Positions 13,281-47,301 of a stretch of DNA of 64,000 nucleotides are shown here, piece by piece. A model generated the notes under the pieces. The model did no database searches. It was not told where the DNA came from and worked only from the letters and a program-made list of their open reading frames with translations. The stretch is from Candidatus Giovannonibacteria bacterium (GTDB taxonomy: Bacteria > Patescibacteriota > Minisyncoccia > JACPKW01 > UBA11713): NCBI GenBank assembly GCA_016176285.1, contig JACOXM010000002.1, forward strand, positions 10,917 through 74,916, written 5' to 3'. Numbering within the stretch: the first letter of the stretch is position 1; each line of letters starts with the position of its first letter. The position numbers and the translations under genes were made by a program.

Positions 13281-13315
13281 TAGGAAGCTAAGCTTGAATA
13301 GAGCGACATCGCCAC

Positions 13316-16300: not shown

Positions 16301-16432
16301 CGATTCCGATAAGGCGGCGTTTGCCACCAACGGAACAGTTAGTGAAGCTCCCGACAGAAATATTGCTGTCGAAAAGCTTAAGAAAGTCACGGCAATTTTA
16401 TTCGCCATGCCATTCTTTGTTCGAATACTCAT
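13316..16432 (-). CDS. Giant secreted cell-surface protein with N-terminal peptidoglycan-binding domain and long Thr/Gly/Ser/Ala-rich beta-rich region
   Basis: Signal peptide, then a PG_binding_1-like segment (GSTGSDVTCLQQYLN...YFGPLTRTAVGKWQ), then ~900 aa of low-complexity T/G/S/A/V-rich sequence. Visibly GC-richer than its neighbours. Confidence 0.65.
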   Translation of the reverse strand: MSIRTKNGMANKIAVTFLSFSTAIFLSGASLTVPLVANAALSESQIQSILQLLQSFGADAATINNVNASLRGQPTTTPPAQTGNCNFTRSLTVGSTGSDVTCLQQYLNSSGFTVAASGAGSPGNETTYFGPLTRTAVGKWQQNYGITPAAGYFGPISRAKYVSLVSGGTTPTPIPTDGATPTPTIVGTGLMISAGTQPANHIAPGAAARVPFTVFKLTASNDGDITVNGVTVERGGPAADGAFIGVTLVDENGTQIGIAKTLNSTHQAVVGDPFVVKAGQTRTLTIGGNMDTKTNLADDAGNVATFSVIGINTAATVSGSLPITGAAHTINAALTIGSVTTSRGSLDPGASQTKNVGTTGYTFSSVKITAGSAEKVYLSSIRWNQTGSVGTADLANVKTYVDGTAYDTVVSSDGKYYTSTFPGNGILVDKGFSVDISIKGDIVGGSSRTVDFDIAKRTDIGLYGAEISKGASGPNWGFGIIPPLAGSAASADGAAFNNADDYYYDAAQVTVNTGTMNVSVATAVAAQNIGVNLLSQPLGALSVDVKGEPISVASITFQVSLVGEGANDDVDDITNAILVDETGTVVAGPVDGSATDSSGNEGTIPFTDTITFPTGAHTYTLKAKIGSDIDGGTTIAASTTPSGWGTVRGLTTSNTITPSPSSALNLPRMTVKSGALSVSVQSVPIAQSVIAGSSQFEFARYTFDATASGEDVRITTIPLAYGVAHAPTTGAANDLTGCKLYDGPVVVNSSNIVDPTAESSSTTFTFDGTGLTLTKGTAKTLSLKCNVRSGSTGAYLWGLDNGQQAAFTGATGVTSGQTIVETLTEANGQIMAASSGGTLTAVLDANSPGYKVVNAGATNVELARIRFSAANEDVDLRQVALQLTGTASNTANDLVGRRVTLWTTDGVSLGTAEFTTAQEDFATSSAIASGTFRITKDSSKVVVVKGDISNICNSCDNNKSGDFLKVDYDGQNVGINGNYGVGVASGSNISPSATDTSSSGVRIFRAYPELAHITLSSTEKTLTAGTTADKTLYKFSVM

Positions 16433-27618: not shown

Positions 27619-27639
27619 GTGATATAAATCCAACACAAA

Positions 27640-27667
27640 ACACCCCGCAGCTCTGCGGGGTGTTTTA
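27640..27667 (+). terminator. Rho-independent terminator
   Basis: ACACCCCGCAG-CT-CTGCGGGGTGT hairpin followed by TTTT. Confidence 0.6.
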
Positions 27668-29390: not shown

Positions 29391-30474
29391 CTAATCAATG
29401 CCTAGTTCAGCTTCAACAAACATATCAAGCTTTCCGTCAAATATTCCTTCTATATCCGATGCTTCCGCGCCAGTTCGCGTATCTTTCACTAATTTATAAG
29501 GATGCAAGACGTATGACCTTATCTGGTGTCCCCATTCAATTTCCAGAGATTTCGATGTTCTTAAAAAATCCTTTTCCTCTTTTTGGCTCTTGGCGCGGAG
29601 TTTATAAAGGTGTCCCCTCAAAAGTTCGAGAGCCTTTTTTCTGTTTTGGTCCTGCGAGCGCTCGGTTGAAATATGAACTTGTATGCCTGTGGGCTTGTGA
29701 ACCACGCGCACCGCAGTCTCTCTTTTATTCACATTTTGCCCGCCTGCGCCGCCGGAACGCGCAAAACTAAACTCGATGTCTTCATCTTTTATCTCCACTT
29801 CTCCGGGATCCACAAATTTAGGCATAACTTCGACGAGCGCAAAAGAAGTATGCCTGCGCTTATTGGAGTCAAAGGGTGAAATCCTGACCAAGCGATGCAC
29901 GCCGGATTCGTTTTTTAAATACCCGTATGCAAATTTTCCTTCTATTTCGGTTGAAGCATTTTTAATTCCGTTCATGTCGTTAAAGTGCTGGTGAATTATT
30001 TTCACTTGCCACCGTTGCCGCGCCGCATATTTTTGATACATTTCTAAAAGAATCCTCGCCCAATCTTCCGCATCATCCCCTCCGGCGCCCGCCACGATTG
30101 TTATGACTGCGTCCCCCTTGTCATATTTTCCGGAAAGAAATGCTTCCTTTTTAGATCTCTCAAATTTCAGATTCAGTTCATTTATCCTCTGCTCTATTTC
30201 TTTTTCATCCTCTTCACTTTTAGAAATCGAAGCTAGTTCCGACAAAGAAAAAATATCGGAAGATAAATTTTCCCAAAAAGAAACGAATTCTTTCAGTTCG
30301 GAAATTTTTTGAGTTATTTCGCCCGCGCGCTTGGGATTATCCCAAAAATTGGGGTGAATTGTTTCAGATTCAAGTTTTATTAATTCCTCTTTTTTTCTAG
30401 CTAAGTCAAAGGCGGTCCGTTAAGCGACGGACTTCGCCCTCCAACTTTTCAATTTTTTCTTTCGGTATTTCCAT
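29391..30474 (-). CDS. prfB: Peptide chain release factor 2 with +1 programmed ribosomal frameshift
   Basis: ORF1 (30474-30406) encodes [22 protein letters not shown] and ends at the canonical CTT TGA C shifty site (30411-30405, minus strand). The +1 frame continues [31 protein letters not shown]..., joining the 284-aa ORF that carries the GGQ motif ([17 protein letters not shown]) and SPF. Confidence 0.85.
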
Positions 30475-30507
30475 AAATTCATTATAACACGGCTTGGAGT
30501 ATTTATA

Positions 30508-30551
30508 TGACTGCGCTCGCAGTTGACACAGAATGTAGTTGGGAGTAAGAT
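30508..30551 (+). promoter_or_regulatory. Putative sigma70-type promoter with overlapping inverted-repeat operator upstream of the ArsR gene
   Basis: Inverted repeat ACTGCG-CT-CGCAGT at 30510-30523. Perfect -35 TTGACA at 30523-30528. A 17-nt spacer, then TAAGAT at 30546-30551. The ArsR ATG is at 30581. Confidence 0.4.
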
Positions 30552-30580
30552 TTAAGTAATTACGCAAGTGCTTAACTGAT

Positions 30581-30910
30581 ATGCTAACAAAAGAACAAAT
30601 AAATAAAATAAAGAAAGAGTTGCCGGATGAAAAAGATCGAATGCCTATCATTCTTGGCGCATTGGGCGACCCTGGCAGGTTTCGGATTTTCAAACTGCTC
30701 TCGGAACACCATGATATTTGCGTGACGGATGTCTCAAATATCTTTGATATTACGGTATCGGCGGCGTCCCAACAATTACGGGTTCTGGAAATGCTGGAAC
30801 TGGTAGAAAAAATGAGAATGGGACAAATGGTCTGCTATGAATTAAAGAAAGACAATCCCACCGTTAAACAACTGATACAATTTATAAAGGTCGGGCGAAT
30901 AAATAATTAA
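30581..30910 (+). CDS. ArsR/SmtB-family metalloregulatory transcriptional repressor
   Basis: wHTH segment CVTDVSNIFDITVSAASQQLRVLEMLELV, ~109 aa. Confidence 0.7.
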   Translation: MLTKEQINKIKKELPDEKDRMPIILGALGDPGRFRIFKLLSEHHDICVTDVSNIFDITVSAASQQLRVLEMLELVEKMRMGQMVCYELKKDNPTVKQLIQFIKVGRINN

Positions 30911-30919
30911 AATAAAAAT

Positions 30920-31156
30920 ATGCAAAAAGTAACTATCTATACAACCCCGACATGCGTGTACTGCAAAATGACCAAAGCGTTCTTCAAAGAGAATAATGTT
31001 CAGTACGAGGAAAAAGACGTGTCGACTGACCGCACCGCGGCGGATGAAATGATCAAAAAATCTAACCAGATGGGTGTGCCTGTCGTTGATATTGACGGGC
31101 AGATTCTTGTCGGTTTCGATAAGGAAGGCTTATCTCGTCTGCTCAATATTAAGTAA
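30920..31156 (+). CDS. Glutaredoxin-like protein (NrdH/Grx fold)
   Basis: CVYC active site in a ~78-aa thioredoxin-fold protein (TIYTTPTCVYCKMTKAFF). Confidence 0.7.
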   Translation: MQKVTIYTTPTCVYCKMTKAFFKENNVQYEEKDVSTDRTAADEMIKKSNQMGVPVVDIDGQILVGFDKEGLSRLLNIK

Positions 31157-31202
31157 CACAATATCGTTAAAAAACAACGTGAATGAAATAAAAAATACTC
31201 AT

Positions 31203-31560
31203 ATGACGGTGTCGGCCGCGATTATTGTCGATGTGGATATAAAGAACGAACCCTTTATCGGCGATCCGAATGCCCCTGTGACGATTGCCTACTGGTCTGA
31301 TTTTCAGTGTCCGTTCTGCCAACGCTTTGAACAAAACACACTGCCGACTCTTGTCGATCAATATGTAAAAACAGGCAAGGTCAAGATCGTGTTTAAGGAT
31401 TTTCAATTCCTCGGACCCGATTCACAGGACGCCTTCTATAGACGCGGATAAGATCGCAAGGCAGGTGGACGAGCAACGTGCCGCCTATCAGCAAAGCTGG
31501 ATGCCGATAAAGCCGAGGGCGCAAAATTTGGCATATTGAGTGTTATTATTTTGAGCGCAT
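31203..31560 (+). pseudogene. DsbA-family thiol:disulfide oxidoreductase remnant (truncated/frameshifted)
   Basis: The N-terminal part with its CPFC active site is intact (PVTIAYWSDFQCPFCQRFEQNTLPTL...KIVFKDFQFLGPDS), but it stops after ~85 aa. The downstream sequence in another frame still reads like a DsbA C-terminus (LDADKAEGAKFGI). Confidence 0.5.
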
Positions 31561-31621
31561 CCATCTATTTGGTTTACCGGAAGATAAATGATCCTCTTAT
31601 CTGTAAACCATCACAAAGAAT

Positions 31622-32239
31622 ATGAATGAACAAATAATGAAACAAGAAAAGCGAGAAATTCGCAGACAAGAAAAAGAAACGGGACAGCACGCGCGGCGGC
31701 GCAATCTTTTTGTGCGCAAAATCAGAAACTACGCAATCATTTTTGGAGTCATTGCTTTTGCGGGTTACGGCCTGTATTTATTGTCACAAAGCAGTGCGAC
31801 GAAGGGAGAAGATTCGAGCCGCGTGATTCCTTTAATGGAAGCAACTCATGTCACTGTGGGTAGTCAACTGCCCGAATATACCTCCAATCCGCCGACGTCG
31901 GGACCGCATTACGGCCAAACTGCTCATTCCGGGTTCCGTGAAGAAACAATTCCTGACCAGCATATTATTCACAATCTTGAACATGGCGATATTTGGATTG
32001 CGTATCATCCGCGTGTCGCAGACGAGATAAAAGAAGAGTTGAAACAATTCGGAGCGGCAAAAGTCATCATCACGCCGCGCGAAGCAAATGAAACCGATAT
32101 CGCGCTTGCCGCGTGGGGACGACTTGATGTGTTTAATATAGAAAATAATACCTTGCCGGTTGAAAGAATAAAAGATTTTATTAAGCGATACACCAATAAA
32201 GGCCCCGAGAAAGTGCCTGGGGCAAGCGGAGGAATATAA
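31622..32239 (+). CDS. Membrane-anchored protein, DUF3105-like (recalled family; unverified)
   Basis: N-terminal TM, then TSGPHY and HNLEHGDIWIAYHP His-rich motifs. Confidence 0.4.
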   Translation: MNEQIMKQEKREIRRQEKETGQHARRRNLFVRKIRNYAIIFGVIAFAGYGLYLLSQSSATKGEDSSRVIPLMEATHVTVGSQLPEYTSNPPTSGPHYGQTAHSGFREETIPDQHIIHNLEHGDIWIAYHPRVADEIKEELKQFGAAKVIITPREANETDIALAAWGRLDVFNIENNTLPVERIKDFIKRYTNKGPEKVPGASGGI

Positions 32240-32305
32240 TTAGTAATCTAAAAGATAGATGGATAATTAGTGGGAAATGTAATCGCGAAGAGTTAAAAAT
32301 AAAAT

Positions 32306-33304
32306 ATGATTTCTCAACAAAAGACGGTCATTATTATAGCGACAATTATAGGAATTTCAGCGATTTTTATTTTATCGCGCGCGGTTTTTAGAAATGATTT
32401 TAAGGATAATGGCAATCAATCTTTTTCAACAAAAGAAATCATGATAACCGATGGCGTAAAACACAGTGTTCCGCTTGATGAGATTCTGGGCGGCGGACCG
32501 CCAAAGGACGGTATTCCATCCATAGATAATCCCAAATTTGTTTCTATTGCTGACGCAGGAAACTTTTTAAGTGATAGTGAGCCGGGTATTGCTCTCGATA
32601 TCAATGGCACCGCACGATTCTATTCATTCCAAATTTTGGTCTGGCATGAAATCGTCAACGACACGATAAATGGCGAGCGCGTGCTCGTAACCTACTGTCC
32701 GCTGTGCCTTTCAGGTATTGTGTTTGATCCTGCGGTGCAAGGCGAGCGCGTCGAATTCGGTACGTCCGGAAAATTGTGGAATTCTAATTTGGTAATGTAC
32801 GACCGCAAAACCGATTCGCTCTGGTCGCAGATTTTAGGCGAGGCGATTGTCGGAGAGATGACCGGTATAGAGCTCAAAGTCCTTCCCTCGGACATGATCA
32901 GATTCGGCGAGTTTAAAAAACAGCATCCGAAGGGCTTCGTGCTTTCGCGCGACACGGGAGCAACGAGATTTTACGGCCAGGATCCTTATGGGAATTACTA
33001 TACTACCCCGGGTACTTTTTTTCCGGTTGACAATAAAGATAACAGGCTTCCAGAGAAGGATTTTATCTTGGGTATCGTGGTAAATGGAAAAGCAAAAGCA
33101 TACTGGCCGGAAGCGATCAAAAAAGTCGGCGAAGTTATAGACCAGTTTGAAGGAAAAACCATTATCGCCAGATATGAAAAAGATATCGACGCAGTCAGGC
33201 TTTTTGAGAAAAAAACCGATGGCACGCTCGAGCGCTTAAATCCATTCGGCGCATTCTGGTTTTCGTGGGCGGCCGCGCATCCTGAAACGGAATTGTATAA
33301 ATAA
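32306..33304 (+). CDS. DUF3179-like secreted protein (recalled family; unverified)
   Basis: N-terminal TM, then the PKDGIPSIDNPKF motif that I associate with DUF3179. Confidence 0.45.
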   Translation: MISQQKTVIIIATIIGISAIFILSRAVFRNDFKDNGNQSFSTKEIMITDGVKHSVPLDEILGGGPPKDGIPSIDNPKFVSIADAGNFLSDSEPGIALDINGTARFYSFQILVWHEIVNDTINGERVLVTYCPLCLSGIVFDPAVQGERVEFGTSGKLWNSNLVMYDRKTDSLWSQILGEAIVGEMTGIELKVLPSDMIRFGEFKKQHPKGFVLSRDTGATRFYGQDPYGNYYTTPGTFFPVDNKDNRLPEKDFILGIVVNGKAKAYWPEAIKKVGEVIDQFEGKTIIARYEKDIDAVRLFEKKTDGTLERLNPFGAFWFSWAAAHPETELYK

Positions 33305-33390
33305 TTTAACGTCACTTATATATATTGCGCCTTCTTTACAAGACTGAGACTTTAAAAAGGTCGATAAAATTAATAAAAAAACAAAAAAAT

Positions 33391-33828
33391 ATGTCAATAA
33401 TAAAAATTGAATCAGAGCATATAAATGCAGGCGTGATTTCGGGACTTATTGCCGGAGTTGTTTTCGGGGCCATGATGGCCATGATGGGGATGCTGCCTAT
33501 GATTGCAAAACTTCTCGGGGGCAGTTCGGCGCTGTTCGGATTTGTTTTGCATCTTATCTTCAGCATGGTCATTGGAGCTATCTTTGCAATTTTTCTTGGA
33601 CACGCCGCAGCGGATAGAATGAAAGGAATAACGCTGGGAATTATATACGGAGTAATATGGTGGTTTTTGGGGCCTCTTACCCTCATGCCTTTATGGCTTG
33701 GAATGGGAATACAACTGTCGCCGGAAGGAATGCAAGCGGCTTTGCCAAGTTTGTGGGGACACTTGGTTTATGGTTTTATCTTGGGCCTCATCTATCCAAT
33801 GATAGTGGGATTAAAACCAAAAAATTAA
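33391..33828 (+). CDS. Small glycine-rich four-TM membrane protein
   Basis: Start corrected to the internal Met (MSIIKIESEH). Four hydrophobic helices. No motif recognised. Confidence 0.4.
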   Translation: MSIIKIESEHINAGVISGLIAGVVFGAMMAMMGMLPMIAKLLGGSSALFGFVLHLIFSMVIGAIFAIFLGHAAADRMKGITLGIIYGVIWWFLGPLTLMPLWLGMGIQLSPEGMQAALPSLWGHLVYGFILGLIYPMIVGLKPKN

Positions 33829-33839
33829 TCGAGAGATAA

Positions 33840-35093
33840 ATGGTAAACGGAAAAAAACCTGTAAGAATTGTGATTCTGGGCGCGGGATTCGGGGGATCTT
33901 ATGCGTTTAAACGCCTGCATAAATTCTTCCATAAAGACCAAAGCGTCGAACTTATTCTCGTGGATGCCAGAAATTACTTTCTCTTCACGCCCTTACTTCA
34001 TGAAGTCGCGACAGGCAGCGTAGCGAGGGAAAACATCGTCGAGCCTCTTAGAAAAGTGCTGGGGTGCTGCCTGGCGGAGTTTTGCTTGGCTGATGTTAAA
34101 AGAGTTGAATTACAGAGCCGCCGTGTCATTACAACAAATGGATCCATTTCTTATGATTATTTGATTATGGCTTTAGGAGCTGAGACAAATTTCTATAATA
34201 TTCCCGGAGCACGGGAACACTCTTTCACTTTGAAATCACTCGAAAATGCGGTCCGCCTGAAAAATCACTTTATTAAAAAATTCGAAGAAGCGGCTGCAAC
34301 CGACGACGAAAATCTTCTGAAAAATAAGCTTTGCTTTGTTGTCGTCGGAGGCGGGCCAACGGGCGTTGAATTAGCCGCAGAGATGTCCGAATTGTTTTAC
34401 CACACATTCAGCAAATATTACGGACGCCATTTCTTTTATCAAAAAGTAAAAATAGCCTTAGTGCAAAACAATAAAGAACTCCTGCCTCGATTCTCCAAAA
34501 AACTTAGAGACAAAAGCCTTTCTGTTTTGCAAAGCAAAAAAATCGACGTCAAGCTCGGTGTAAATGTAAAAAGAGTTGTAAAAACTTTTATTGAGCTAAG
34601 CACCGGAGAAATACTCCCGACAGAAACCGTAATCTGGGTTGCGGGAGTAAAACCGCGGGATGTGCTTTTTGACCGAAAAATTGAACGCGATTCTAAGGGA
34701 AGAATACGCGTAAACGAATACTTGCAAATGTATGAGTCGCCCGAAGTGTTCGCATTAGGGGATATAGCGGCGTTCGCTCAAAATAAAAAAGAACTGCCGG
34801 AATTTGCTCAAGTCGCAACCAAGCAGGCTCGAGGCGTGGCGGAAAATATTAAAAATTTAATTGACGGAAAACCAGCCAGACCTTTTCATTACAGACATAC
34901 CGGAGATTTAATTTCTTTGGGACAGTGGATGGCAATCGGAGAGATTGGAGGTTTTCCATTCTGGGGCCGCTTTACCTGGTGGCTATGGAGAACAGTGTAT
35001 CTTTCAAAACTCATATCGTTCCCAAAAAAAGTTAAAGTGGCGGTCGACTGGACGTTTAATCTATTCATGCCTCGGGATATATCGCAATTATAA
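33840..35093 (+). CDS. ndh: Type II NADH:quinone oxidoreductase (NDH-2) / FAD-dependent pyridine nucleotide-disulfide oxidoreductase
   Basis: Two Rossmann motifs (RIVILGAGFGGSY and FVVVGGGPTGVELAAE), ~417 aa. Confidence 0.75.
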   Translation: MVNGKKPVRIVILGAGFGGSYAFKRLHKFFHKDQSVELILVDARNYFLFTPLLHEVATGSVARENIVEPLRKVLGCCLAEFCLADVKRVELQSRRVITTNGSISYDYLIMALGAETNFYNIPGAREHSFTLKSLENAVRLKNHFIKKFEEAAATDDENLLKNKLCFVVVGGGPTGVELAAEMSELFYHTFSKYYGRHFFYQKVKIALVQNNKELLPRFSKKLRDKSLSVLQSKKIDVKLGVNVKRVVKTFIELSTGEILPTETVIWVAGVKPRDVLFDRKIERDSKGRIRVNEYLQMYESPEVFALGDIAAFAQNKKELPEFAQVATKQARGVAENIKNLIDGKPARPFHYRHTGDLISLGQWMAIGEIGGFPFWGRFTWWLWRTVYLSKLISFPKKVKVAVDWTFNLFMPRDISQL

Positions 35094-35164
35094 AAGATAT
35101 GAAGAATGATATTATTAATTTATAAGGTCAAAAGGCGAATTAAAAGCTAATTTTTATTAAGAAT

Positions 35165-35548
35165 ATGTTATTCGAACTAAATCAATACAGTGATATTGCG
35201 TTTCTAATCTTGCGCTTGGCAATAGCGGCAATTTTTATTTATCACGCACTGCCGAAACTAAAGGGCGCAAAAATAATGTCGCAGGAGATGGGCATGCCCG
35301 CCGGAATGATATTTATGCTTGGCGGAATAGAACTTCTGTCGTCCGCAGGATTGGCGCTCGGTGTCTATACGCAACTTGCCTCGGCACTCCTTGCTTTCGT
35401 GATGATTGGAGCCATTTACTTTAAAATGGTGAAATGGCACGTGCCGTTTGGGGCAATGGATAAAACCGGATGGGAGTTTGATCTTATTCTCTTGGCAGCC
35501 AGCATCTTCATCCTCGTGAACGGCGGAGGTGCGATAGGAATACAGTAA
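35165..35548 (+). CDS. DoxX-family membrane protein
   Basis: ~127 aa, four TMs, and the LRLAIAAIFIYHALPKL pattern typical of DoxX. Confidence 0.65.
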   Translation: MLFELNQYSDIAFLILRLAIAAIFIYHALPKLKGAKIMSQEMGMPAGMIFMLGGIELLSSAGLALGVYTQLASALLAFVMIGAIYFKMVKWHVPFGAMDKTGWEFDLILLAASIFILVNGGGAIGIQ

Positions 35549-35552
35549 TTTT

Positions 35553-36518
35553 ATGCAATACGATCTTATTATCATAGGCTCTGGCGCGGCCGGTCTGGGG
35601 GCCGCAATCTATAGCGGTCGCTACCGCATGAAAGTTCTTGTTGCGAGCAAAGAATTCGGCGGCGAGACTGCGAAAGCGGGCGTTATTGAAAATTATCCCG
35701 GCATCAAAGCCATCGATGGCTATGAGCTTATGGGGGCGATGTGGGAACAGACAAAAAGTCTCGCAGTTGAGATAATTGACGAGGAAGTTAAAGACGTTAA
35801 GCGGCAAGGACATTGTTTTGAAGTCTCGACAAAAAATGCGACGTATCAAACGCACGCAATTATTTTTGCTTTAGGTGCCGAACGCCGCCGGCTTGGTTTG
35901 CCTAACGAAAAAGAATTGACCGGCAAAGGCGTGCATTATTGTGTGACTTGCGACGGTCCAGTATACGGCGGAAAAACCATAGCCATGGCCGGCGGAGGTG
36001 ATGCTTCAGTAAAAGGCGCGATTCTTGCGGCCGAATATGTTAATAAGGTATTTCTGATCGTCCGCGGCAAAGAAGTTCAAGCAGAGCCGGTTAATCTGGA
36101 GCGAATGAAAAAACTCGGAGATAAAATTGAACTGCTCTTGGATACAGAAGTTAAAGAAATTGCAGGCGAAAAGAAACTTGAAAAGCTGATTCTTTCGCGC
36201 GAATTTAAAGGGTCATCCGAGCTGGTTGTTGACGGCTTGTTCGTAGAAATAGGCGCGGTACCTAATGTCGAACTTACAAAATCGATTGGCGTGGAACTTG
36301 ATGAACGCGGATACATTAAAACTGACGCCATGATGCAAACGAATATTGATGGAGTGTTTGCGGCCGGTGACGCGGTCAATCATTTCGGCTCTTTCAAGCA
36401 GTGTATTACTTCCGCGGCCATGGGAGCAGTCGCTGCTACCTCCGCTTACAACGACCGCAAAATTCACGGCGAAATTTGTCCGATACACGCCAAACCGCAA
36501 TTAACATTAAAAAAATAA
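35553..36518 (+). CDS. trxB: Thioredoxin-disulfide reductase
   Basis: FAD motif YDLIIIGSGAAGLGAAIY, redox-active CVTCDG (CxxC), and NADPH motif AMAGGGDAS. Confidence 0.85.
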   Translation: MQYDLIIIGSGAAGLGAAIYSGRYRMKVLVASKEFGGETAKAGVIENYPGIKAIDGYELMGAMWEQTKSLAVEIIDEEVKDVKRQGHCFEVSTKNATYQTHAIIFALGAERRRLGLPNEKELTGKGVHYCVTCDGPVYGGKTIAMAGGGDASVKGAILAAEYVNKVFLIVRGKEVQAEPVNLERMKKLGDKIELLLDTEVKEIAGEKKLEKLILSREFKGSSELVVDGLFVEIGAVPNVELTKSIGVELDERGYIKTDAMMQTNIDGVFAAGDAVNHFGSFKQCITSAAMGAVAATSAYNDRKIHGEICPIHAKPQLTLKK

Positions 36519-36553
36519 AGGCCGAAAATTAATAATTTAAAATTTAATTTATT

Positions 36554-36727
36554 ATGAACGAATCAGAAAAAAAATGCTCAACATGCGGCGGCAAAGCCGC
36601 GGGATACAAGTGCGATTCGTGCGGCGTTGAAGCCGCAGAGCACGACGAGAAGCATAGCTGCGGCGGGAATCATTGCGTAGCAAAATGTGCAAACTGCAAT
36701 CAAGCGGAAACTAAATGCGCTTGCTAA
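36554..36727 (+). CDS. Unannotated small cysteine-rich protein (57 aa, 10 Cys), possible metal-binding / metallothionein-like
   Basis: Not in the ORF track. Translation is MNESEKKCSTCGGKAAGYKCDSCGVEAAEHDEKHSCGGNHCVAKCANCNQAETKCAC. Its stop overlaps the next gene's start. Confidence 0.4.
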   Translation: MNESEKKCSTCGGKAAGYKCDSCGVEAAEHDEKHSCGGNHCVAKCANCNQAETKCAC

Positions 36728-37248
36728 ATGTGAAAAAATCTTTAGTAATCGCGAGTATTGTCACATTAAGCCTCGTAGGCATCGGCTTGTTAGTAATTTC
36801 TAACCGCAACGTCCCCGACCAGTCAGATCGCCAAACTCCCGAAAAAGCGCCTGACTTTAATTTGCAGAATTTTGAAGGCAAGATTGTGCGCCTTACGGAT
36901 TTTACAGGGAAGCCGCTTGTGATAAATTCGTGGGCCGCATGGTGTCCGTTCTGTCGCAAAGAACTGGTTGATTTTGCAGCGGCGCAAAAGGAATTTGGCG
37001 ACAAAGTAACAATTATAGCGATTGACCGATCGGAAGCGCTGAATGTGGCGAAAAAATATACAGACGAACTGGGAGTAACCAATGAGCTTATCCTTCTTCT
37101 TGATCCATCGGACAACTTTTATCAATCAATTGGAGGTTTTTCGATGCCGGAGACGATTTTTATAGATAAAAATGGGGAGATAATCGAACACAAGCGCGGA
37201 CCAATGGACGTAAATGAGATGCGCTTAAAAATAGAAAAGATCTTGTAA
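36715..37248 (+). CDS. TlpA/ResA-like periplasmic thiol-disulfide oxidoreductase (thioredoxin fold)
   Basis: Signal anchor, then WAAWCPFC (the WCxxC motif) in a redoxin-fold context. Confidence 0.75.
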   Translation: MRLLNVKKSLVIASIVTLSLVGIGLLVISNRNVPDQSDRQTPEKAPDFNLQNFEGKIVRLTDFTGKPLVINSWAAWCPFCRKELVDFAAAQKEFGDKVTIIAIDRSEALNVAKKYTDELGVTNELILLLDPSDNFYQSIGGFSMPETIFIDKNGEIIEHKRGPMDVNEMRLKIEKIL

Positions 37249-37254
37249 CAAAAT

Positions 37255-37914
37255 ATGTATCACCCAAAACCTTATCAGAAATGCGAAATGCCGGAGTTTA
37301 GCGGAACTCTTGGCGTTTTGGTGCTGAACGGCTCACTGAAACATAAAAGCGAATCATCAAATACGGAAGAATTAGCCGAATTAGTTATAGAAAACATGAA
37401 AAGCCATTCGGAAATCGATTATGAAATCATTAGGCTCGCGGATAAAAATATTCCGGCTGGCCTTGGTTTTAAAGAAAGCGAAGATGACGAGTGGCCGAAG
37501 ATTGCGGAGAAAATTAAAAAAGCTGATATTGTTTTGTTCGCGTCGCCTATCTGGTGGGGTGGAAGATCAAGTCTTATGCAGCGAATCATTGAACGTATGG
37601 ATGCGTTCGATGAGGAATATATACATGGCGGCAGAAACACTTTACTCAACAAAGTCGCCGGTATTGTCATAACCGGTAGCGAAGACGGAGCGCAAGCAAC
37701 CCTTAGCTCCCTTATGAGTATGCTGACATTTATGAATTTCGCTTTGCCGCCGCAATGCGCCGCTTACTGGGTAGGCGAAGTCGGTCAAGATCCGAAAGAT
37801 GACCGCGAGAGAAGGCTCAAAAATAAAGCGGTTGAAAACATGGCCAAAACCATGGCAAGGAATTTAGTTTTTTATGCCAAATTATTAAAAGATCATCCTA
37901 TCATTGAAAAATAA
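37255..37914 (+). CDS. NAD(P)H-dependent FMN reductase / flavodoxin-like fold protein
   Basis: LGVLVLNGSLK..., then VLFASPIWWGGRSS and IVITGSEDGAQ, typical of the FMN_red family. Confidence 0.6.
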   Translation: MYHPKPYQKCEMPEFSGTLGVLVLNGSLKHKSESSNTEELAELVIENMKSHSEIDYEIIRLADKNIPAGLGFKESEDDEWPKIAEKIKKADIVLFASPIWWGGRSSLMQRIIERMDAFDEEYIHGGRNTLLNKVAGIVITGSEDGAQATLSSLMSMLTFMNFALPPQCAAYWVGEVGQDPKDDRERRLKNKAVENMAKTMARNLVFYAKLLKDHPIIEK

Positions 37915-37918
37915 CATC

Positions 37919-38080
37919 ATGGTTAAAACAATAAAAAATCAAAATAGGGAGCTGTATCAGTGCGAAGAATGCGGCTTGAAATACGAATCTAAAGAAATCG
38001 CGGAGAAATGCCAAGCATGGTGCAATGAACATAAAAGCTGCAATCTGGATATTATAAAAAACGCTGTGAAGGATTTATGA
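37919..38080 (+). CDS. Unannotated small zinc-ribbon-like protein (53 aa)
   Basis: Not in the ORF track. Translation is MVKTIKNQNRELYQCEECGLKYESKEIAEKCQAWCNEHKSCNLDIIKNAVKDL (CxxC...CxxxC...C). It shares an ATGA overlap with the next gene. Confidence 0.35.
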   Translation: MVKTIKNQNRELYQCEECGLKYESKEIAEKCQAWCNEHKSCNLDIIKNAVKDL

Positions 38081-38565
38081 GCGTCAATCACACGCAAGTT
38101 CAAGAGTTGGAATACAACTACATCACTGACGGCATTTATATCGGCACAAACCAGTGCTGCCAAACGCATTTCGACGAGAAACTAAAGAAAGAAGGTATCA
38201 TCGCCGACATTTCCTTGGAAGAAGACCGGCTCGACGCGCCCTTCGGCGTTGATTTTTATGTTTGGATTCCTGTAAAAAATCATGCGGCACCCAAACCTGA
38301 TCAACTTGAATTTGGAGTTTCAGTTCTGGAAAAACTGGTGTTGATGAAAAAGAAAGTATATGTGCATTGCAAAAACGGCCACGGCAGAGCGCCGACGCTC
38401 GCCGCCGCCTATCTCATTATAAAAGGAAAAAGTCCGGAAGAAGCTGAAGCATTTATTAAATCAAAACGTCCTTCCATGCATCTTCAAAAAATCCAAAAAA
38501 CTGTGCTTCAAAAATTTAGTCAAAAAAATAAATGGAATTTTCACTTATCATCCCGGCATTTATAG
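38077..38565 (+). CDS. Dual-specificity / protein-tyrosine phosphatase-like protein
   Basis: CX5R P-loop VHCKNGHGRAPT, ~160 aa. Confidence 0.6.
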   Translation: MSVNHTQVQELEYNYITDGIYIGTNQCCQTHFDEKLKKEGIIADISLEEDRLDAPFGVDFYVWIPVKNHAAPKPDQLEFGVSVLEKLVLMKKKVYVHCKNGHGRAPTLAAAYLIIKGKSPEEAEAFIKSKRPSMHLQKIQKTVLQKFSQKNKWNFHLSSRHL

Positions 38566-39287
38566 CCGGCATCCTTACCTTTCTTGCCCCCTGTACGCTT
38601 CCTTTGGTGCCGGGGTATTTGGGATTCATCAGTGGCGTTTCGGCAAACGACTTACAAGATCCGAATAAAGCAAAAATTGTGCGAGGAAAAATCTTTTTTA
38701 ACGGAGTTTTTTATGTAATTGGTTTTAGCTTGGTTTTCATAATTCTCGGAAGCCTTTTTGGACTCGGCGGCGCTGCTCTTTTTAAATACCGGATTTGGCT
38801 CTCGCGAATCGGCGGCATTTTTGTGATATTTTTCGGGCTCTTTATGACGGGCATTTTAAAACTTCCGTTTTTGAATTTTGAAAAACATCTCGGGGGCATA
38901 AAAGCCTTAAAACCCGGAAACCCTACAAGTTCACTGATTTTCGGAGCGACATTTGCTTTTGGATGGACTCCGTGCGTCGGTCCGATTCTTGGATCAATCC
39001 TTACGCTCGCTGCGGCATCGGCAACGGTCGGTCAGGGAGCGTTTCTTCTTTCGGTTTTCTCTCTTGGACTTGCGGTACCGTTCCTTATAATCGCTGCGGG
39101 CATAGGTTCTGCATCAAGCTATATCTCAAAACTGAACAAGTATCTCAATGTTGTTTCGATTATCGGAGGTCTTTTTCTTATTTTTCTTGGCATCCTTCTT
39201 TTCACAAACAAGCTCGGCGTGTGGATCGCATACTTTTATCAATGGTTCGATTTTACTAACTACGAACGATTGCTTGATTATTTATAA
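38532..39287 (+). CDS. ccdA: Cytochrome c-type biogenesis / thiol-disulfide transfer membrane protein CcdA (DsbD family)
   Basis: AGILTFLAPCTLPLVPGYLGFISG and a second Cys in TPCVGPILGSIL. Six TMs. Confidence 0.85.
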   Translation: MEFSLIIPAFIAGILTFLAPCTLPLVPGYLGFISGVSANDLQDPNKAKIVRGKIFFNGVFYVIGFSLVFIILGSLFGLGGAALFKYRIWLSRIGGIFVIFFGLFMTGILKLPFLNFEKHLGGIKALKPGNPTSSLIFGATFAFGWTPCVGPILGSILTLAAASATVGQGAFLLSVFSLGLAVPFLIIAAGIGSASSYISKLNKYLNVVSIIGGLFLIFLGILLFTNKLGVWIAYFYQWFDFTNYERLLDYL

Positions 39288-39494
39288 TTATGATTAGGAC
39301 GATAAAACAAAACGAAAAAGAGACACACACACAACCTTTTTAGCCAACCGCGAAGCGCGCCTCTGCGCGCCGAGCGGAAAGGATTCGTCGTTCAAAAATC
39401 GGAATCTCTAATCTTGGAGCCACCTCCCGGATTCCTCGCCTGTAAAAGCTATGCTTTAGCATTGTGGGCAGGGAACCGGCGACTTCTTAATTTG

Positions 39495-39566
39495 AGCCGG
39501 AGAGAGGATTTGAACCCCCGACCTTACCCTTACGAAGGGTCTGCTCTACCACTGAGCTACTCCGGC
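39495..39566 (-). tRNA. tRNA-Thr (anticodon CGT)
   Basis: Hand fold of the reverse complement. Acceptor GCCGGAG/CTCCGGC, D-arm GCTC-AGTGGTA-GAGC, anticodon loop TTCGTAA, T-arm GGGGG-TTCAAAT-CCTCT. Confidence 0.75.
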
Positions 39567-39584
39567 TTGTATTTTTTAATACAG

Positions 39585-39655
39585 TGCGAGTGGCGGGAAT
39601 TGAACCCGCGTCCCTTGCTTGGGAAGCAAGTATATTGCCACTATACTACACTCGC
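39585..39655 (-). tRNA. tRNA-Gly (anticodon CCC)
   Basis: Hand fold. Acceptor GCGAGTG/CACTCGC, anticodon stem CTTGC/GCAAG with loop TTCCCAA, T-arm GCGGG-TTCAATT-CCCGC. Confidence 0.75.
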
Positions 39656-39660
39656 AATTT

Positions 39661-40707: not shown

Positions 40708-42492
40708 TTATTTTTTTATCATCTGAACAAAAACATCCGGCGGGATTGTAAAGCGCGCCTCTTCCTCAAGGCGTTTTTTCCCCTCTTTCTGCTTTTTCCA
40801 TAATTTCATTTTTCTCGATCTGTCGCCCCCGTAAAGGTAGCCGGTAACATCTTTGCGCAAAGCTTTCAGCGTCCTTGAAGATAATATCCTTCCCATGGCT
40901 TTTGCCTGGATTTTGAGCGAGAAAAGCGCTTGTGGGAGAATTTTATATAATTTTTCCACGGCCCTCTCCGCTTCCTCCTCTACACGTTTCTTGGGAACAA
41001 TTTTCGAAAATGCTGGGACAATTTCATCAGCAATCAAAATATCAAGCCTCAAAAGATTTCCAGGGCGGTTTTCCAGAAATTCGTAATTTAAGGACGCATA
41101 ACCCTGCGAGACGCTTTTTAAATCGTCAAAAAAATCCCTCATCAGCTCCCGGAGAGGCATTTGCGCCTCAAGCTTCAAGCGCGATTCGGAAAATTTATGT
41201 GTTTCTCCTACTATCGCTTCATGCTCCTGCAAAAGTTTCAGCGCCGGTGAAATTTTTTCAGGCGGAAGAAGAATTTCGAGCTTCAGCCAAGGCTCTTCGA
41301 CCTCGAGAACCTCCCCCTCGTCCGGAAATTTGTGCGGCGAATATACTTCCATGGTATTTTTTTTAGTCTTGACGGAATAGCGCACGGTCGGCGTGGCTAC
41401 AATTGTTTTTACCCCAAAATCCCTTCTCAAGCGCTCAACCACTATTTCCAAATGCAGCATCCCCAAAAATCCGCAGCGAAATCCTCTTCCCAAAACTCCT
41501 GATGATTCTTCCTCAAAAGAAAGGGAGGCATCTGAAAGTTTCAGCCTCTCGAGCGATCTTCGAAGCTCTTCAAAATCATCCTGCTCTTCCGGGAATAAAG
41601 AAGAAAAAACTACGGGCTTTACATCTTTGTAGCCGGGCAAAGGCTCCAAAGACGGGTCAAGGACAGTATCGCCTACCCGCACTATTCTAGCCTCTTTAAT
41701 ACTTGTAACAACGTATCCTATTTCGCCTGCGGAAATTTTTTCAGACAGCTTTAACTCCGGCTTAAAAAACCCCGTCTCGCCGACAATAAAATCCTCGCGG
41801 GACGCGAATAAGCGCAAGCGCTCCCCCCTTTTTATTTCTCCGTCAAAAACTCGCACATGGGCGATAACGCCACGATGAAGGGAATAATCGAAATCAAATA
41901 TTAAGGCCCTTGTTTTCTTGGAAACCGAGTTTCCACTTGGAAACTCGGTTTCCAAGTGTTTCGGGGCAGGAATTTCTTTTATTATTTCGCTAAGTAAATT
42001 TTCAACCCCATCTCCCGTCCTCGCAGAAACTTTCAAAATTTTGGAAGATTCCCCTAATAAATTTCTTATTTCCTCCTCCGTTTCCTCCACCCTTGCGTGC
42101 GCAAGATCAATTTTATTAATCACCGGGATTATTTTCAGATTTTGCGCCCTCGCCTGTTCCACGGTTGAAAGCGTCTGCGCCTGCACCCCCTGCGTCGCGT
42201 CCACAAGCAAAACCGCCCCCTCCACAGCGGCAAGAGCTCTCGAAACTTCATAAGAAAAATCTATGTGCCCGGGGGTATCAATTAAATTTAAAATATAGCC
42301 CTTCCACTCCATCCTTACGGGCTGCATTTTTATCGTAATCCCGCGCTCCCGCTCCAGGGGCATCTGATCCAAAAACTGCTCCTTCATTTTCCGCGCTTCC
42401 ACGGTTTTCGTAACCTCAAGCATCCTATCCGCGAGAGTAGACTTACCGTGGTCAATATGGGCAATTATAGAAAAATTGCGTATTTCAGACAT
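40708..42492 (-). CDS. lepA: Elongation factor 4 (LepA)
   Basis: IRNFSIIAHIDHGKSTLADR G-domain, ~594 aa, and a LepA-type C-terminus. Confidence 0.9.
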   Translation of the reverse strand: MSEIRNFSIIAHIDHGKSTLADRMLEVTKTVEARKMKEQFLDQMPLERERGITIKMQPVRMEWKGYILNLIDTPGHIDFSYEVSRALAAVEGAVLLVDATQGVQAQTLSTVEQARAQNLKIIPVINKIDLAHARVEETEEEIRNLLGESSKILKVSARTGDGVENLLSEIIKEIPAPKHLETEFPSGNSVSKKTRALIFDFDYSLHRGVIAHVRVFDGEIKRGERLRLFASREDFIVGETGFFKPELKLSEKISAGEIGYVVTSIKEARIVRVGDTVLDPSLEPLPGYKDVKPVVFSSLFPEEQDDFEELRRSLERLKLSDASLSFEEESSGVLGRGFRCGFLGMLHLEIVVERLRRDFGVKTIVATPTVRYSVKTKKNTMEVYSPHKFPDEGEVLEVEEPWLKLEILLPPEKISPALKLLQEHEAIVGETHKFSESRLKLEAQMPLRELMRDFFDDLKSVSQGYASLNYEFLENRPGNLLRLDILIADEIVPAFSKIVPKKRVEEEAERAVEKLYKILPQALFSLKIQAKAMGRILSSRTLKALRKDVTGYLYGGDRSRKMKLWKKQKEGKKRLEEEARFTIPPDVFVQMIKK

Positions 42493-42587
42493 GACTAGAG
42501 TTTATATAAAAATTAAGAAATAAAAAAGGTACGAATATTAAAAACGCAAACCGTAAAAATACTTGCGATAGCAAACAAATTTACGAT

Positions 42588-46878: not shown

Positions 46879-46886
46879 GATTTATA

Positions 46887-47294
46887 GATACGCCTGTAAG
46901 CCGAATTCTGTTCACCTTCGCTTTTGCAAAGGATCGGCGATCATTTATCTCGAATCCATCTTGCGATGGAAGCTGAAGCGGCACTTCCCACTCGATATAT
47001 CGATATTCGAAATTTCGAGCGGGACACGGCCTTGCACCGGGCAGGGTTTTCCACGATATGGCGTTGCCGACATATCGATCCCGCTTTTAGCGGGAACTTT
47101 TCACCTTTTATCTCGACTTTATATCAAGATTAGTATTGTCTCTGTGGCACTATTCCCGTCCCGACTTGCATCGGGAGGTGGGCGTTACCCACTGCCTTTT
47201 TCATCAACAAGAAGGGATCTTGCCCTCGGCTTGTCGAAGGGTGTTCGGACTTTCCTCTCTAATTTTTTGAATTAGAGCGATCGCCAAGCGTATC
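46887..47294 (-). ncRNA. rnpB: RNase P RNA, bacterial type A
   Basis: The minus strand contains GAGAGGAAAGTCCGAACACCC (the P4 5' strand GGAAAGUCCG) preceded by a P3 hairpin, the 3' conserved GGTGAACAGAATTCGGCTTACAGG (ACAGAAxxCGGCUUA), and a P1 helix GATACGC/GCGTATC. ~410 nt. Two spurious plus-strand ORFs overlap it. Confidence 0.8.
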
Positions 47295-47301
47295 AATTCG
47301 C

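Follow-up and report, generated by a model that had tools for sequence, protein, structure and literature searches.

A 64,000-nt window from the genome of Candidatus Giovannonibacteria bacterium (assembly GCA_016176285.1, contig JACOXM010000002.1, positions 10,917–74,916) contains a block of 15 genes, beginning with an ArsR/SmtB-family regulator and ending with the membrane protein CcdA, that lies between a tRNA-Gly/tRNA-Thr gene pair and the release factor gene prfB. Synteny and synonymous-site identity indicate that the DNA from 30520 to 39322 is very probably a horizontally acquired insertion at this position. The block is an expanded copy of a modular cassette circulating among the Candidate Phyla Radiation (CPR)/Patescibacteria, and the cassette is a mosaic as judged from its genes. 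As a whole, the best explanation appears to be an acquired modular cassette that provides an inducible reducing relay for the cell surface, and we consider this fairly likely. An initial annotation of the window had described the block as a GC-rich redox and metal-stress island next to tRNA genes. Its observation was partly confirmed, and its interpretation was partly supported.

The insertion site was compared in the neighborhoods of six Giovannonibacteria relatives ranked by LepA identity (89, 80, 80, 76, 71, and 68%), the last of which is a complete 651-kb genome. The gene order TPR–MurJ–LepA–DivIC–(hypothetical)–tRNA-Gly–tRNA-Thr–PrfB–FtsE–FtsX was kept in all six. In the comparison between prfB and the tRNA pair that the initial annotation had suggested, the block was absent from 6/6 relatives, and no block gene was found within 10 kb on either side of the site. 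Four of the six sites were empty or near-empty, and two carried other cargo. In L019 and L020 (loci are designated by L numbers), tRNA-Thr ends only ~25–30 nt ahead of the prfB ATG. The slot of L018, the closest relative, holds ~5 kb of unrelated genes (a DedA/VTT protein, an ABC ATPase, a major facilitator superfamily fragment, and hypothetical proteins), and that of L022 holds a 410-aa ORF (open reading frame) and an inverted tRNA-Thr. The empty sites and the differing cargo mark the junction between the tRNA genes and prfB as a variable hotspot and the redox block as particular to this genome. The flanks match L018 on one side with PrfB (85%), FtsE (97%), and FtsX (92%) and on the other side with LepA (89%) and MurJ (85%). 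A genome-contig scan with the lineage-specific 179-aa neighbor of the block (hyp179) gave no match. The borders of the site and the features at the ends of the acquired DNA are as follows.

29391..30474, minus strand: prfB, release factor 2, 360 aa (Pfam PCRF and RF-1; syntenic in 6/6 relatives); conserved left border of the site
30520..30580, plus strand: cassette regulatory region, −35 TTGACA (30523) and −10 TAAGAT (to 30551); 10/12 matches in the promoter scan
39290..39322, plus strand: start of a second DUF7128 gene, 11 codons (MIRTIKQNEKE), truncated at 39322 (aligned with L030, L032, and L052)
39323..39414, no strand: 92 nt unassigned, with a GC-rich palindrome; absent from the empty sites
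39415..39463, minus strand: decayed 3′ part of a GCCACCT-type tRNA-Thr, covering the anticodon arm through the CCA end (sequence comparison)
39494..39566, minus strand: intact tRNA-Thr(CGT), acceptor GCCGGAG/CTCCGGC (ARAGORN; Rfam 64.4 bits)
39584..39655, minus strand: tRNA-Gly(CCC), 1 nt different from that of L018; conserved right border of the site

Cassette-homologous DNA spans 30518–30520 to 39322 (8.8 kb). On the left, nucleotide homology to L024, L032, and L052 (82–86%, blastn) begins at 30518–30520 at the −35 box of the ArsR promoter, and 30520 is taken as the left end of the acquired DNA because homology to foreign cassettes starts there. The promoter and the palindrome behind it are near-invariant in a four-locus alignment. 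This palindrome is an imperfect 10-4-10 inverted repeat (TTAAGTAATT-ACGC-AAGTGCTTAA) at 30552–30575 and is a candidate operator of ArsR. On the right, the second DUF7128 gene, which is intact behind ccdA in L030, L032, and L052, is truncated, and 39322 is taken as the right end because homology stops there, inside this gene. The neighboring prfB has its −10 box (GTGTTATAAT) at 30481–30490 and a programmed +1 frameshift site (CTT TGA C) at 30405–30411, because of which simple ORF calling cuts the gene to 284 aa; the full product has 360 aa. A mosaic prfB, imported in part with the cassette, was considered and rejected. The dip in N-terminal identity occurs in all pairs, including L018 versus L019, and therefore reflects lower constraint, not a recombination boundary.

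The tRNA side of the block bears scars. The acceptor of the window tRNA-Thr is unlike that of 6/6 relatives (GCCACCT type) and is the same as that of L024 (GCCGGAG), and its D and anticodon arms are identical to those of L018 over 31 nt. The fragment at 39415–39463 sits 60 nt downstream of the intact gene. It was not recognized by Rfam; its final 20 nt (GAATCCGGGAGGTGGCTCCA) recur unchanged in the L024 fragment, and an exact match to the tRNA-Thr of L019 covers 18 of them. In L024, the same composite is found at 2032–2180: a GCCGGAG-type tRNA-Thr, a fragment 43 nt after it, ~35 nt of similar sequence, and then the cassette and prfB. The intact tRNA-Thr and the fragment of L024 have an 18-nt direct repeat (TTTCGTAAAGCAAAGGTC) in common, which is exact and begins in the anticodon loop. 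The fragment found in both the window and L024 marks a past recombination, and the composite may stem from co-transfer with the cassette, from gene conversion, or from an integrase relic. In L021, a 38-nt exact 5′ fragment of the window/L018-type tRNA-Gly was observed at 12383–12420, just upstream of the locus's own different-type tRNA-Gly, which makes L021 a second example of a tRNA replaced here with a remnant left behind. The tRNA fragments look like relics of integrase activity at the tRNA pair, yet they do not bound the block. No tRNA-derived repeat of at least 12 nt was found elsewhere in the window, and a general repeat search found nothing bounding the block.

The cassette was delineated with the DUF3179 protein as the query defining its loci, and 83 loci (three named contexts and 80 metagenomic loci) were mapped with all block proteins. 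Among the loci with DUF3179 at ≥70% identity and at least 3 kb on both sides, ArsR, the TlpA-like protein, and CcdA were each present in 6/6, and the glutaredoxin (Grx)-like protein and the DSP-fold protein in 5/6. Where the identity of DUF3179 falls below 50%, the linkage vanishes (CcdA in 1/11) and the gene is mostly alone. The linkage of DUF3179 to ArsR, TlpA, and CcdA thus defines the cassette. Its backbone, with optional members in parentheses, is ArsR, Grx-like protein, (second redoxin), DUF3179, (DoxX), (Cys/His-rich peptide), TlpA-like redoxin, (DUF7128), (DSP), and CcdA. Further optional genes are those for TrxB, DUF3105, an intact DsbA-like protein, an FMN reductase, and a membrane-protein/NDH-2 pair. 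Each block gene of the window was found in some cassette variant. The window copy corresponds to the L024/L052 backbone plus four additions, and its extras are the DsbA pseudogene, DUF3105, the membrane-protein/NDH-2 pair, TrxB, and the FMN reductase.

Cassette proteins are 70–90% identical across many CPR lineages, whereas core proteins are only 45–62% identical. Homologs of DUF3179 at 70–84% occur in Colwell-, Lipton-, Taylor-, Niyogi-, Azam-, Brenner-, Yanofsky-, and Magasanikbacteria and others; no second Giovannonibacteria was among the top 120 matches listed for DUF3179 or for CcdA. The nearest relatives of the cassette genes are thus other CPR/Parcubacteria and not Actinobacteria or Firmicutes, a distinction that the initial annotation had asked for. 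LepA matches named outside Giovannonibacteria are ≤62% identical. On the single contig of L024, cassette proteins are 69–87% identical to those of the window, compared with 50% for PrfB, 62% for FtsE, and 45% for FtsX. The commonest neighbors in the 145 ORFs flanking other cassettes are PrfB, FtsE/X, and Fe/Mn superoxide dismutase (SOD). prfB adjoins the cassette in L024, L038, L058/L060, and L064, in some of them together with tRNA-Thr; a tRNA lies within 2.5 kb in only 5/41 cassette loci. Genes for Fe/Mn SOD were observed beside the cassette in three loci (flanks L024–L085). Literature searches on CcdA, thioredoxin, genomic islands, and NDH-2 in Patescibacteria/CPR turned up no account of the cassette. 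The kinds of components are known (CcdA/TlpA pathways, ArsR regulators, and tRNA-side islands), and what is new is the DUF3179-centered, integrase-less, CPR-wide cassette.

Identity at 4-fold degenerate sites under identical amino acids was used as the synonymous measure. Core genes of the window and its nearest relative L018 agree at 269/761 of these sites (0.353, saturated), and those of the window and L024 at 0.34. For CcdA, the values against L032, L030, L024, and L052 are 0.63, 0.61, 0.56, and 0.56 (p = 1e-8 to 3e-5), and for ArsR against L024, L032, and L052 they are 0.61–0.63 (p about 0.003). Grx and DoxX give 0.53 and 0.49, respectively. Purifying selection cannot preserve synonymous sites. 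As the core is saturated even against L018 while ArsR and CcdA are not saturated against foreign cassettes, the ends of the block therefore share an ancestor with distant CPR more recently than the split from the closest sampled relative.

Base composition was the ground on which the initial annotation had called the block an island, and this ground did not hold. The GC content of the block, said to be visibly higher, is 0.434 versus 0.418 in the rest, and 9.5% of equal-length windows reach or exceed the block. The comparison of per-gene GC gave p = 0.06, and GC at third codon positions is 0.451 versus 0.412 (p = 0.04). The codon-usage distance of the block (3.30) is within the range of other 9-kb gene runs. 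The GC-rich impression probably arose because the direct neighbors of the block, hyp179 and DivIC, are AT-rich (GC 0.37–0.38). Across 17 loci, the mean difference between cassette GC and host GC is −0.002; composition is silent on transfer because cassette GC tracks host GC. The block thus resembles the genome in composition, yet the lineage does not conserve it at this position. The island claim stands as a lineage-specific insertion on synteny and synonymous-site identity. Both tRNA genes are on the minus strand, and their 3′ ends point to the block, as had been noted. The proposed classical tRNA integration point was borne out in that a different-type tRNA-Thr 3′ fragment lies beside the intact gene, but not in its placement, since the fragment is on the tRNA side, the prfB end has no repeat, and few cassette loci have a nearby tRNA. 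As a separate observation, the true compositional outlier of the window is 12633–16432, with GC of 0.48–0.50, GC at second codon positions of 0.53, and the largest codon-usage distance (4.7–4.95). On its minus strand lie two ORFs, one for a 1038-aa protein with a PG_binding_1 domain and one of 215 aa without a family match.

All 15 ORFs (15/15) from 30581 to 39287 are on the plus strand with intergenic gaps of −34 to +170 nt, in agreement with the initial annotation, and its gene identities for the block were backed by Pfam and NCBIfam assignments. The genes are as follows.

30581..30910, plus strand: ArsR/SmtB-family repressor, 109 aa (HTH_5, PF01022, 6e-10; NF033788, 63.9 bits, cut-off 55)
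30920..31156, plus strand: glutaredoxin-like protein of the YruB family, 78 aa, CVYC (PF00462, 1.3e-19; TIGR02196, 97.8 bits, cut-off 88.55)
31203..31553, plus strand: DsbA-like pseudogene (Thioredoxin_4 profile positions 3–61 of 165 only; tblastn with intact homologs)
31622..32239, plus strand: DUF3105 protein, 205 aa, optional (PF11303, 1.7e-23; N-terminal transmembrane (TM) segment 37–55; invariant HNLEHGD and conserved His)
32306..33304, plus strand: DUF3179 protein, 332 aa (PF11376, 2.2e-89, 300.2 bits, profile 1–292 of 292; N-terminal TM anchor)
33391..33828, plus strand: integral membrane protein, 145 aa, 4–5 TM, optional (hydropathy; 145-aa gene call in independent assemblies)
33840..35093, plus strand: NDH-2-type flavoprotein, 417 aa, optional (Pyr_redox_2, 1.2e-44; NDH2_C, PF22366, 37.5 bits, cut-off 27.7)
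35165..35548, plus strand: DoxX-family membrane protein, 127 aa, 4 TM, frequent optional (PF07681, 2.2e-12)
35553..36518, plus strand: low-Mr thioredoxin reductase TrxB, 321 aa, optional (TIGR01292, 6.5e-89, 297.7 bits, below the equivalog cut-off of 343)
36554..36727, plus strand: 57-aa peptide with 10 Cys and 3 His (ORF/translation; weak zf-HIT match only)
36715..37248, plus strand: TlpA/ResA-like membrane-anchored thioredoxin-fold protein, 177 aa (AhpC-TSA and Redoxin, ~1e-21; N-terminal TM)
37255..37914, plus strand: NAD(P)H-dependent FMN reductase/flavodoxin-like fold, 219 aa, optional (PF03358, 6.3e-23)
37919..38080, plus strand: DUF7128 zinc-ribbon mini-protein, 53 aa (PF23447, 25.1 bits; 53-aa gene call in independent assemblies)
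38077..38565, plus strand: DSP/PTP-fold protein, 162 aa (Tc-R-P, PTP-SAK, and DSPc, ~1e-12)
38532..39287, plus strand: CcdA, 251 aa, 6 TM (DsbD_TM, PF02683, 1e-15)

ArsR is 87–90% identical to the copies in L024, L032, and L052. Its nearest solved relatives include Lmo1102, SmtB, CadC, and CzrA, and NmtR is also among the metal sensors named. The alpha5 D/H/H/E and alpha3/alpha3N Cys-pair ligand sets of metal sensors were not found in ArsR, whose alpha3 has a single Cys. Two cysteines are invariant in 17 cassette copies, C47 in CVTD (alpha3) and C85 in GQMVCYE (wing), and ArsR is a candidate thiol-based sensor. The CxxC of the Grx-like protein is conserved in 97% of 33 copies, and this protein is a candidate cytoplasmic dithiol carrier from TrxB to CcdA; the block has no classical thioredoxin. 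TrxB has its CVTC redox motif at residue 130, and its copies in L026, L028, L029, and L038 are 72–78% identical. In CcdA, C21 and C148 are invariant in 23 copies. The 120 best matches listed for CcdA have 250–270 aa (nearly all 251) and are 71–88% identical; at least 10 CPR lineages are represented among the named ones. The NCBI name for CcdA and many of its CPR homologs was observed to be “sulfite exporter TauE/SafE family protein”. Scans against Pfam and NCBIfam returned DsbD_TM, DsbD_2, DsbD, and ArsG-family matches and no TauE/SafE family; together with the invariant TM cysteines, which also favor CcdA, this suggests that the database name is probably misleading.

The TlpA-like protein matches ResA (NF002854) at 83 bits, below the cut-off of 170, and its WCPFC motif is invariant in 27 copies. 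We propose that it would be the extracytoplasmic electron acceptor of CcdA. The YCPLC motif of DUF3179 is invariant in the 120 homologs listed. DUF3179 is listed as a UxxC/T selenoprotein family (PMC9312934 and PMC13188914), and the motif is therefore suggested to be catalytic or redox-type, the correspondence being made through the motif descriptions in literature tables. In the papers found that name DUF3179, the family is mentioned or tabulated as a selenoprotein family and its function is not discussed. A PDB profile search found no solved relative, and a Foldseek search of the PDB gave no match at E ≤0.001 (TM-score ~0.1) and thus no fold match. DUF3179 is proposed to be an extracytoplasmic terminal redox protein, and gene linkage alone suggests its role as a client of the relay. 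TlpA, DUF3179, and DUF3105 have N-terminal anchors and are predicted to face outside. DUF3105 occurred in 1/14, 1/17, and 6/24 cassette loci of three DUF3179 identity bins; a PDB search with it was discarded because it gave only spurious matches to designed proteins.

In the DSP protein, the HCX5R(T) P-loop is invariant and is accompanied by a vicinal NQCC pair. Among solved structures, a DSP-family protein and PRL phosphatases are closest to it, and its gene is usually directly upstream of ccdA (L024, L026, L030, L032, L035, L040, L043, and L052). DUF7128 has five conserved cysteines in 18 copies. The DsbA “remnant” of the initial annotation proved to be a true pseudogene: the anchor is gone, an in-frame stop lies at 31449–31451, and similarity continues to ~31553, where intact cassette homologs have 218–268 aa. 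The 57-aa peptide is a candidate metal-binding or zinc-ribbon protein and occupies the slot of 54–65-aa Cys/His-rich peptides in other cassettes. Such peptides recur at L024 5372–5542, L026 12388–12564, L028 4703–4873, L035 11205–11375, L042 1405–1569, L052 11493–11690, and L063 4040–4231. These peptides, whose recurrent motifs are CMACSCPCExHKEHxH and CGHEHKxDGxCDCGC, belong to no Pfam or NCBIfam family and are possibly new metal-binding peptides.

NDH-2 has the Rossmann motifs GAGFGG at residue 14 and GGGPTG at residue 170. AQxAxQ is the quinone-binding motif of NDH-2; the corresponding region here is the variant AQVATKQ at 323. The best homologs of NDH-2 among GTDB species representatives are 50–55% identical, belong to Nomura- and Zambryskiibacteria, and are in loci not syntenic with the block, and NDH-2 stands alone in the other CPR genomes examined. 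L026 has a 167-aa TM protein (65% identical) next to an NDH-2 (55%), the same pair as the 145-aa protein and NDH-2 of the window. DoxX is 76–80% identical in L024, L027, L029, and L052. An FMN reductase homolog at 47% was found in L058/L060. The assignment of the FMN reductase as ArsH was rejected, as NCBIfam gave only a weak match to MsuE and none to ArsH. NDH-2 has been reported to be rare in CPR (bioRxiv 10.1101/2025.10.14.682086).

Here, we propose a functional mechanism of the cassette, which we regard as moderately supported and about evenly balanced. In the resting state, the two-cysteine ArsR repressor would occupy the inverted repeat that lies downstream of the −10 box and ahead of the start codon, and thiol oxidation or the binding of a thiophilic metal or electrophile would release it. 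TrxB (CVTC) would then take electrons from NAD(P)H and hand them to the Grx-like dithiol protein, from which CcdA (C21/C148) would carry them across the membrane. Outside, CcdA would reduce the anchored TlpA-like protein (WCPFC), which in turn would serve DUF3179 (YCPLC) and other exposed cysteine proteins. Surface proteins would thereby be kept reduced, or oxidants and soft metals would be detoxified at the cell surface, and the Cys/His-rich peptide may buffer metal. As optional modules, NDH-2, DoxX, and the FMN reductase would dispose of NAD(P)H-linked or quinone-type oxidants. The redox cysteines are kept in all relay members (Grx, TrxB, CcdA, TlpA, and DUF3179). The cassette thus probably keeps cell-surface proteins reduced under oxidative or metal stress. 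A relay from TrxB through CcdA to TlpA had already been suggested by the initial annotation; it is plausible from its parts and their conserved linkage and would operate as described, and the constant partner DUF3179 had been overlooked. More tentatively, DUF3179 could be the terminal extracytoplasmic redox enzyme of a new self-regulated envelope-defense system (two-Cys ArsR, Grx-like protein, CcdA, and TlpA) that spreads across CPR without an integrase, as a cassette of freely combined genes, often beside prfB or tRNA-Thr.

Several observations weigh against the acquired cassette with its surface relay. Only the ends of the block are demonstrably recent, and the middle genes are near synonymous saturation (TlpA 0.35, DSP 0.39, and DUF3179 0.40–0.46). 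No donor above 88–90% identity was among the matches found, and an older residence with later allelic replacement is possible because the cassette lies near prfB in L024, L038, L058/L060, and L064 too. The junctions have no independent assembly coverage, and exact-protein look-ups of CcdA and ArsR gave no records. Integrase, resolvase, and transposase domains were absent from the block ORFs in family scans, in line with the initial annotation as to the integrase, so that the insertion mechanism has no visible agent; neither integrase nor transposase was among the 25 commonest families in the 145 flanking ORFs of other cassettes. No repeat was found at the prfB end, where an att-like search with the window tRNAs gave chance 11-mers only. 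A compositional signal is missing, and the GC gap of merely 1.3–1.6 points neither helps nor contradicts. As to function, we infer all of it from the genes, be it what induces the cassette, what donates electrons to CcdA in the cytoplasm, or what DUF3179 does, and two AlphaFold2 models of DUF3179 (from 44 and 120 sequences, all ≥68% identical) were poor, with a mean local confidence (pLDDT) of 60 and global scores (pTM) of 0.48 and 0.57.

The same observations bear on other origins of the block. It could be vertically inherited core, ancestral between tRNA-Thr and prfB in Parcubacteria, slow-evolving, and repeatedly lost in other Giovannonibacteria. The adjacency of the cassette to prfB, and sometimes to tRNA-Thr, in the loci just named, the host-like composition, and the DsbA pseudogene and truncated DUF7128 gene, which imply some age, agree with such an origin, but it is highly improbable given the absence in 6/6 relatives with clean empty sites of ~25–30 nt from tRNA-Thr to prfB, the lack of other Giovannonibacteria in the top 120 matches listed for DUF3179 or CcdA, and the 4-fold identity of ArsR and CcdA (0.56–0.63) with hosts whose core stands at 0.34 (0.35 for the nearest relative). 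A classical integrase-mediated tRNA island, with the integrase and the distal att site since deleted, would account for the tRNA-Thr 3′ fragment that begins in the anticodon arm 60 nt off the intact gene, for the 18-nt direct repeat of L024, for the 38-nt tRNA-Gly fragment of L021, and for the different cargo of the slot in L018 and L022. We consider it unlikely, as the fragment lies between the tRNA and the block and not at the far end, no tRNA-derived repeat is near prfB, a tRNA within 2.5 kb is uncommon among cassette loci (5/41), and an integrase was found neither in the block, nor in the alternative cargos of the slot, nor among the 25 commonest flanking families. That foreign DNA was joined at the tRNA genes by an assembly or binning error is extremely improbable. 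tRNA genes are repeats prone to mis-joins, and the junctions are outside the independent assemblies; against this, five assemblies from different runs match 33086–38157 at 100%, and L024 independently has tRNA-Thr, fragment, cassette, and prfB on one contig. Moreover, the same relatives match both flanks in gene order and at consistent identity, and two chimeric joins would therefore be needed, the left one in unique sequence. Horizontal acquisition of the cassette thus remains our preferred origin.

Other functions have also to be weighed against the surface-reducing relay. An island devoted to metal(loid) resistance (Cu, Hg, Cd, or As), with ArsR as the metal sensor and the Cys-rich peptide as a metallothionein, is rather doubtful, although the nearest solved relatives of the regulator are the metal sensors SmtB, CadC, CzrA, and NmtR, Cys/His-rich peptides such as CMACSCPCExHKEHxH recur, the TlpA-like/DsbA-like/DsbD-family trio parallels the copper-induced Scs system (PMC10907172), and L026 has a MerA-like Pyr_redox_dim protein nearby. 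The block has no efflux pump (P-type ATPase, ArsB/Acr3, or CDF) and no ArsC, the FMN reductase is not ArsH, the regulator is without the alpha5 His/Asp/Glu site and the alpha3 CxC pair, and the SOD neighbor favors oxidative stress. An oxidant, an electrophile, or a soft metal could each be the trigger. An ars operon was considered separately and rejected, as neither an ArsB/Acr3 pump nor ArsC is in the block and the ArsG match of CcdA has 53 bits versus a cut-off of 200. The initial annotation had stressed quinone-linked partners, and a respiratory module of NDH-2 and DoxX coupled to the thiol relay in a non-respiring organism would fit the NDH-2 with both Rossmann motifs and the NDH2_C domain and the presence of DoxX and an FMN/quinone-reductase-type flavoprotein in the same block. 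This emphasis proved weak, and such a module is very unlikely: NDH-2 was found in 1/31, DoxX in 5/31, and the FMN reductase in 0/31 other loci with DUF3179 at ≥57% identity, the block has no quinone-biosynthesis, oxidase, or cytochrome gene, NDH-2 is solitary in other CPR genomes, and its quinone motif is a variant. Because these three genes are rare across cassette loci, the proposed relay is independent of them.

Other features of the neighborhood were observed. A gene for an ~230-aa Y1 (IS200/RAYT-like) transposase lies between murJ and lepA, overlapping the lepA start, in L018 (9358–10050), L019 (9316–10008), L020 (9331–10008), and L021 (9334–10026); at this spot the window has only a 95-nt gap (42493–42587). 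Within the lepA coding sequence of the window, a perfect 19-nt inverted repeat with a 2-nt spacer (CTTGGAAACCGAGTTTCCA / TGGAAACTCGGTTTCCAAG) is found at 41917–41956. At 27637–27666, the convergent genes for an RRM protein and ftsX are separated by a perfect 14-bp GC-rich hairpin that is flanked on either side by A/T runs and resembles a bidirectional terminator; in L018, a gene for a HicB antitoxin is inserted here. A bacterial RNase P RNA of class A is encoded at 46881–47296 on the minus strand (171.8 bits), and the 132-aa ORF on the opposite strand is spurious.

CPR/Patescibacteria have minimal genomes, their ways of handling oxygen, oxidants, and metals are poorly understood, and clear dated transfers among them are scarce. 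At the present locus, a gain is cleanly documented, with empty sites as controls and synonymous sites as a clock. Base composition cannot reveal transfers inside the radiation, and GC-based island finders would therefore miss such events. The conserved linkage of the cassette offers a testable function for DUF3179 and for the small DUF7128, DSP-fold, and Cys-rich partners. If the proposed system is real, it would be a shared mobile “oxygen/metal tolerance kit” for ultra-small episymbiotic bacteria. The locus also warns that NDH-2 and DoxX in such blocks are no grounds for inferring respiration.

Among known systems, the tRNA-associated islands resemble the present locus in a lineage-specific insertion directly 3′ of a tRNA, a partial tRNA duplication, and a slot whose cargo varies among relatives. 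They differ in that the block has no integrase, bounding direct repeats, or compositional deviation, and the cassette elsewhere is usually not tRNA-linked. As in the SmtB–SmtA system, a winged-helix ArsR/SmtB repressor, with SmtB among its closest solved relatives, is encoded with a small Cys/His-rich peptide. In contrast to that system, the alpha5 and alpha3N ligand sets are missing from the cassette sensor, in which two cysteines are invariant instead, the peptide has no metallothionein homology detectable with Pfam or NCBIfam, and the operon consists mostly of thiol–disulfide oxidoreductases. The CcdA core is common to the CcdA–ResA (System II) and CcdA–StoA pathways of Bacillus subtilis, and the best NCBIfam match of the cassette redoxin is ResA, but the conserved partner in the cassette is DUF3179. 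System II cytochrome c maturation itself was rejected as a function, as no gene for ResB/ResC (CcsBA) or a c-type cytochrome is among the 15 block proteins or the mapped cassette variants. The stress-induced Scs envelope set (ScsABCD) of Salmonella, Proteus, and Caulobacter comprises a DsbD-family transporter, the TlpA-like ScsD, and the DsbA-like ScsC (PMC10907172, PMC5524982, and bioRxiv 10.64898/2026.05.22.727170). The cassette likewise has a TlpA-like (ScsD-like) protein, and its DsbA-like gene is intact in some variants and a pseudogene in the window. Unlike Scs, its CcdA is a minimal 251-aa TM core without the periplasmic domains of ScsB, ScsA is absent, the proposed regulator is of the ArsR type and not CpxR/CueR, and DUF3179 has no Scs counterpart. 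In the CcdA–Etrx–MsrAB2 pathway of Streptococcus pneumoniae and Streptococcus gordonii (PMC3914529 and PMC7034828), in hosts without c-type cytochromes, CcdA moves thioredoxin electrons to a surface thioredoxin-fold protein and then to a surface redox enzyme, and the genes are clustered. In the cassette, CcdA is similarly linked to a TlpA-like protein (WCPFC) and a further CxxC protein, both of them anchored. The cassette differs from that pathway in that its redoxin is membrane-anchored and not a lipoprotein, its terminal partner, known here from genes alone, would be DUF3179 and not a methionine sulfoxide reductase, and it adds an ArsR-type regulator, a Grx-like carrier, DSP-fold and DUF7128 proteins, and Cys-rich peptides.

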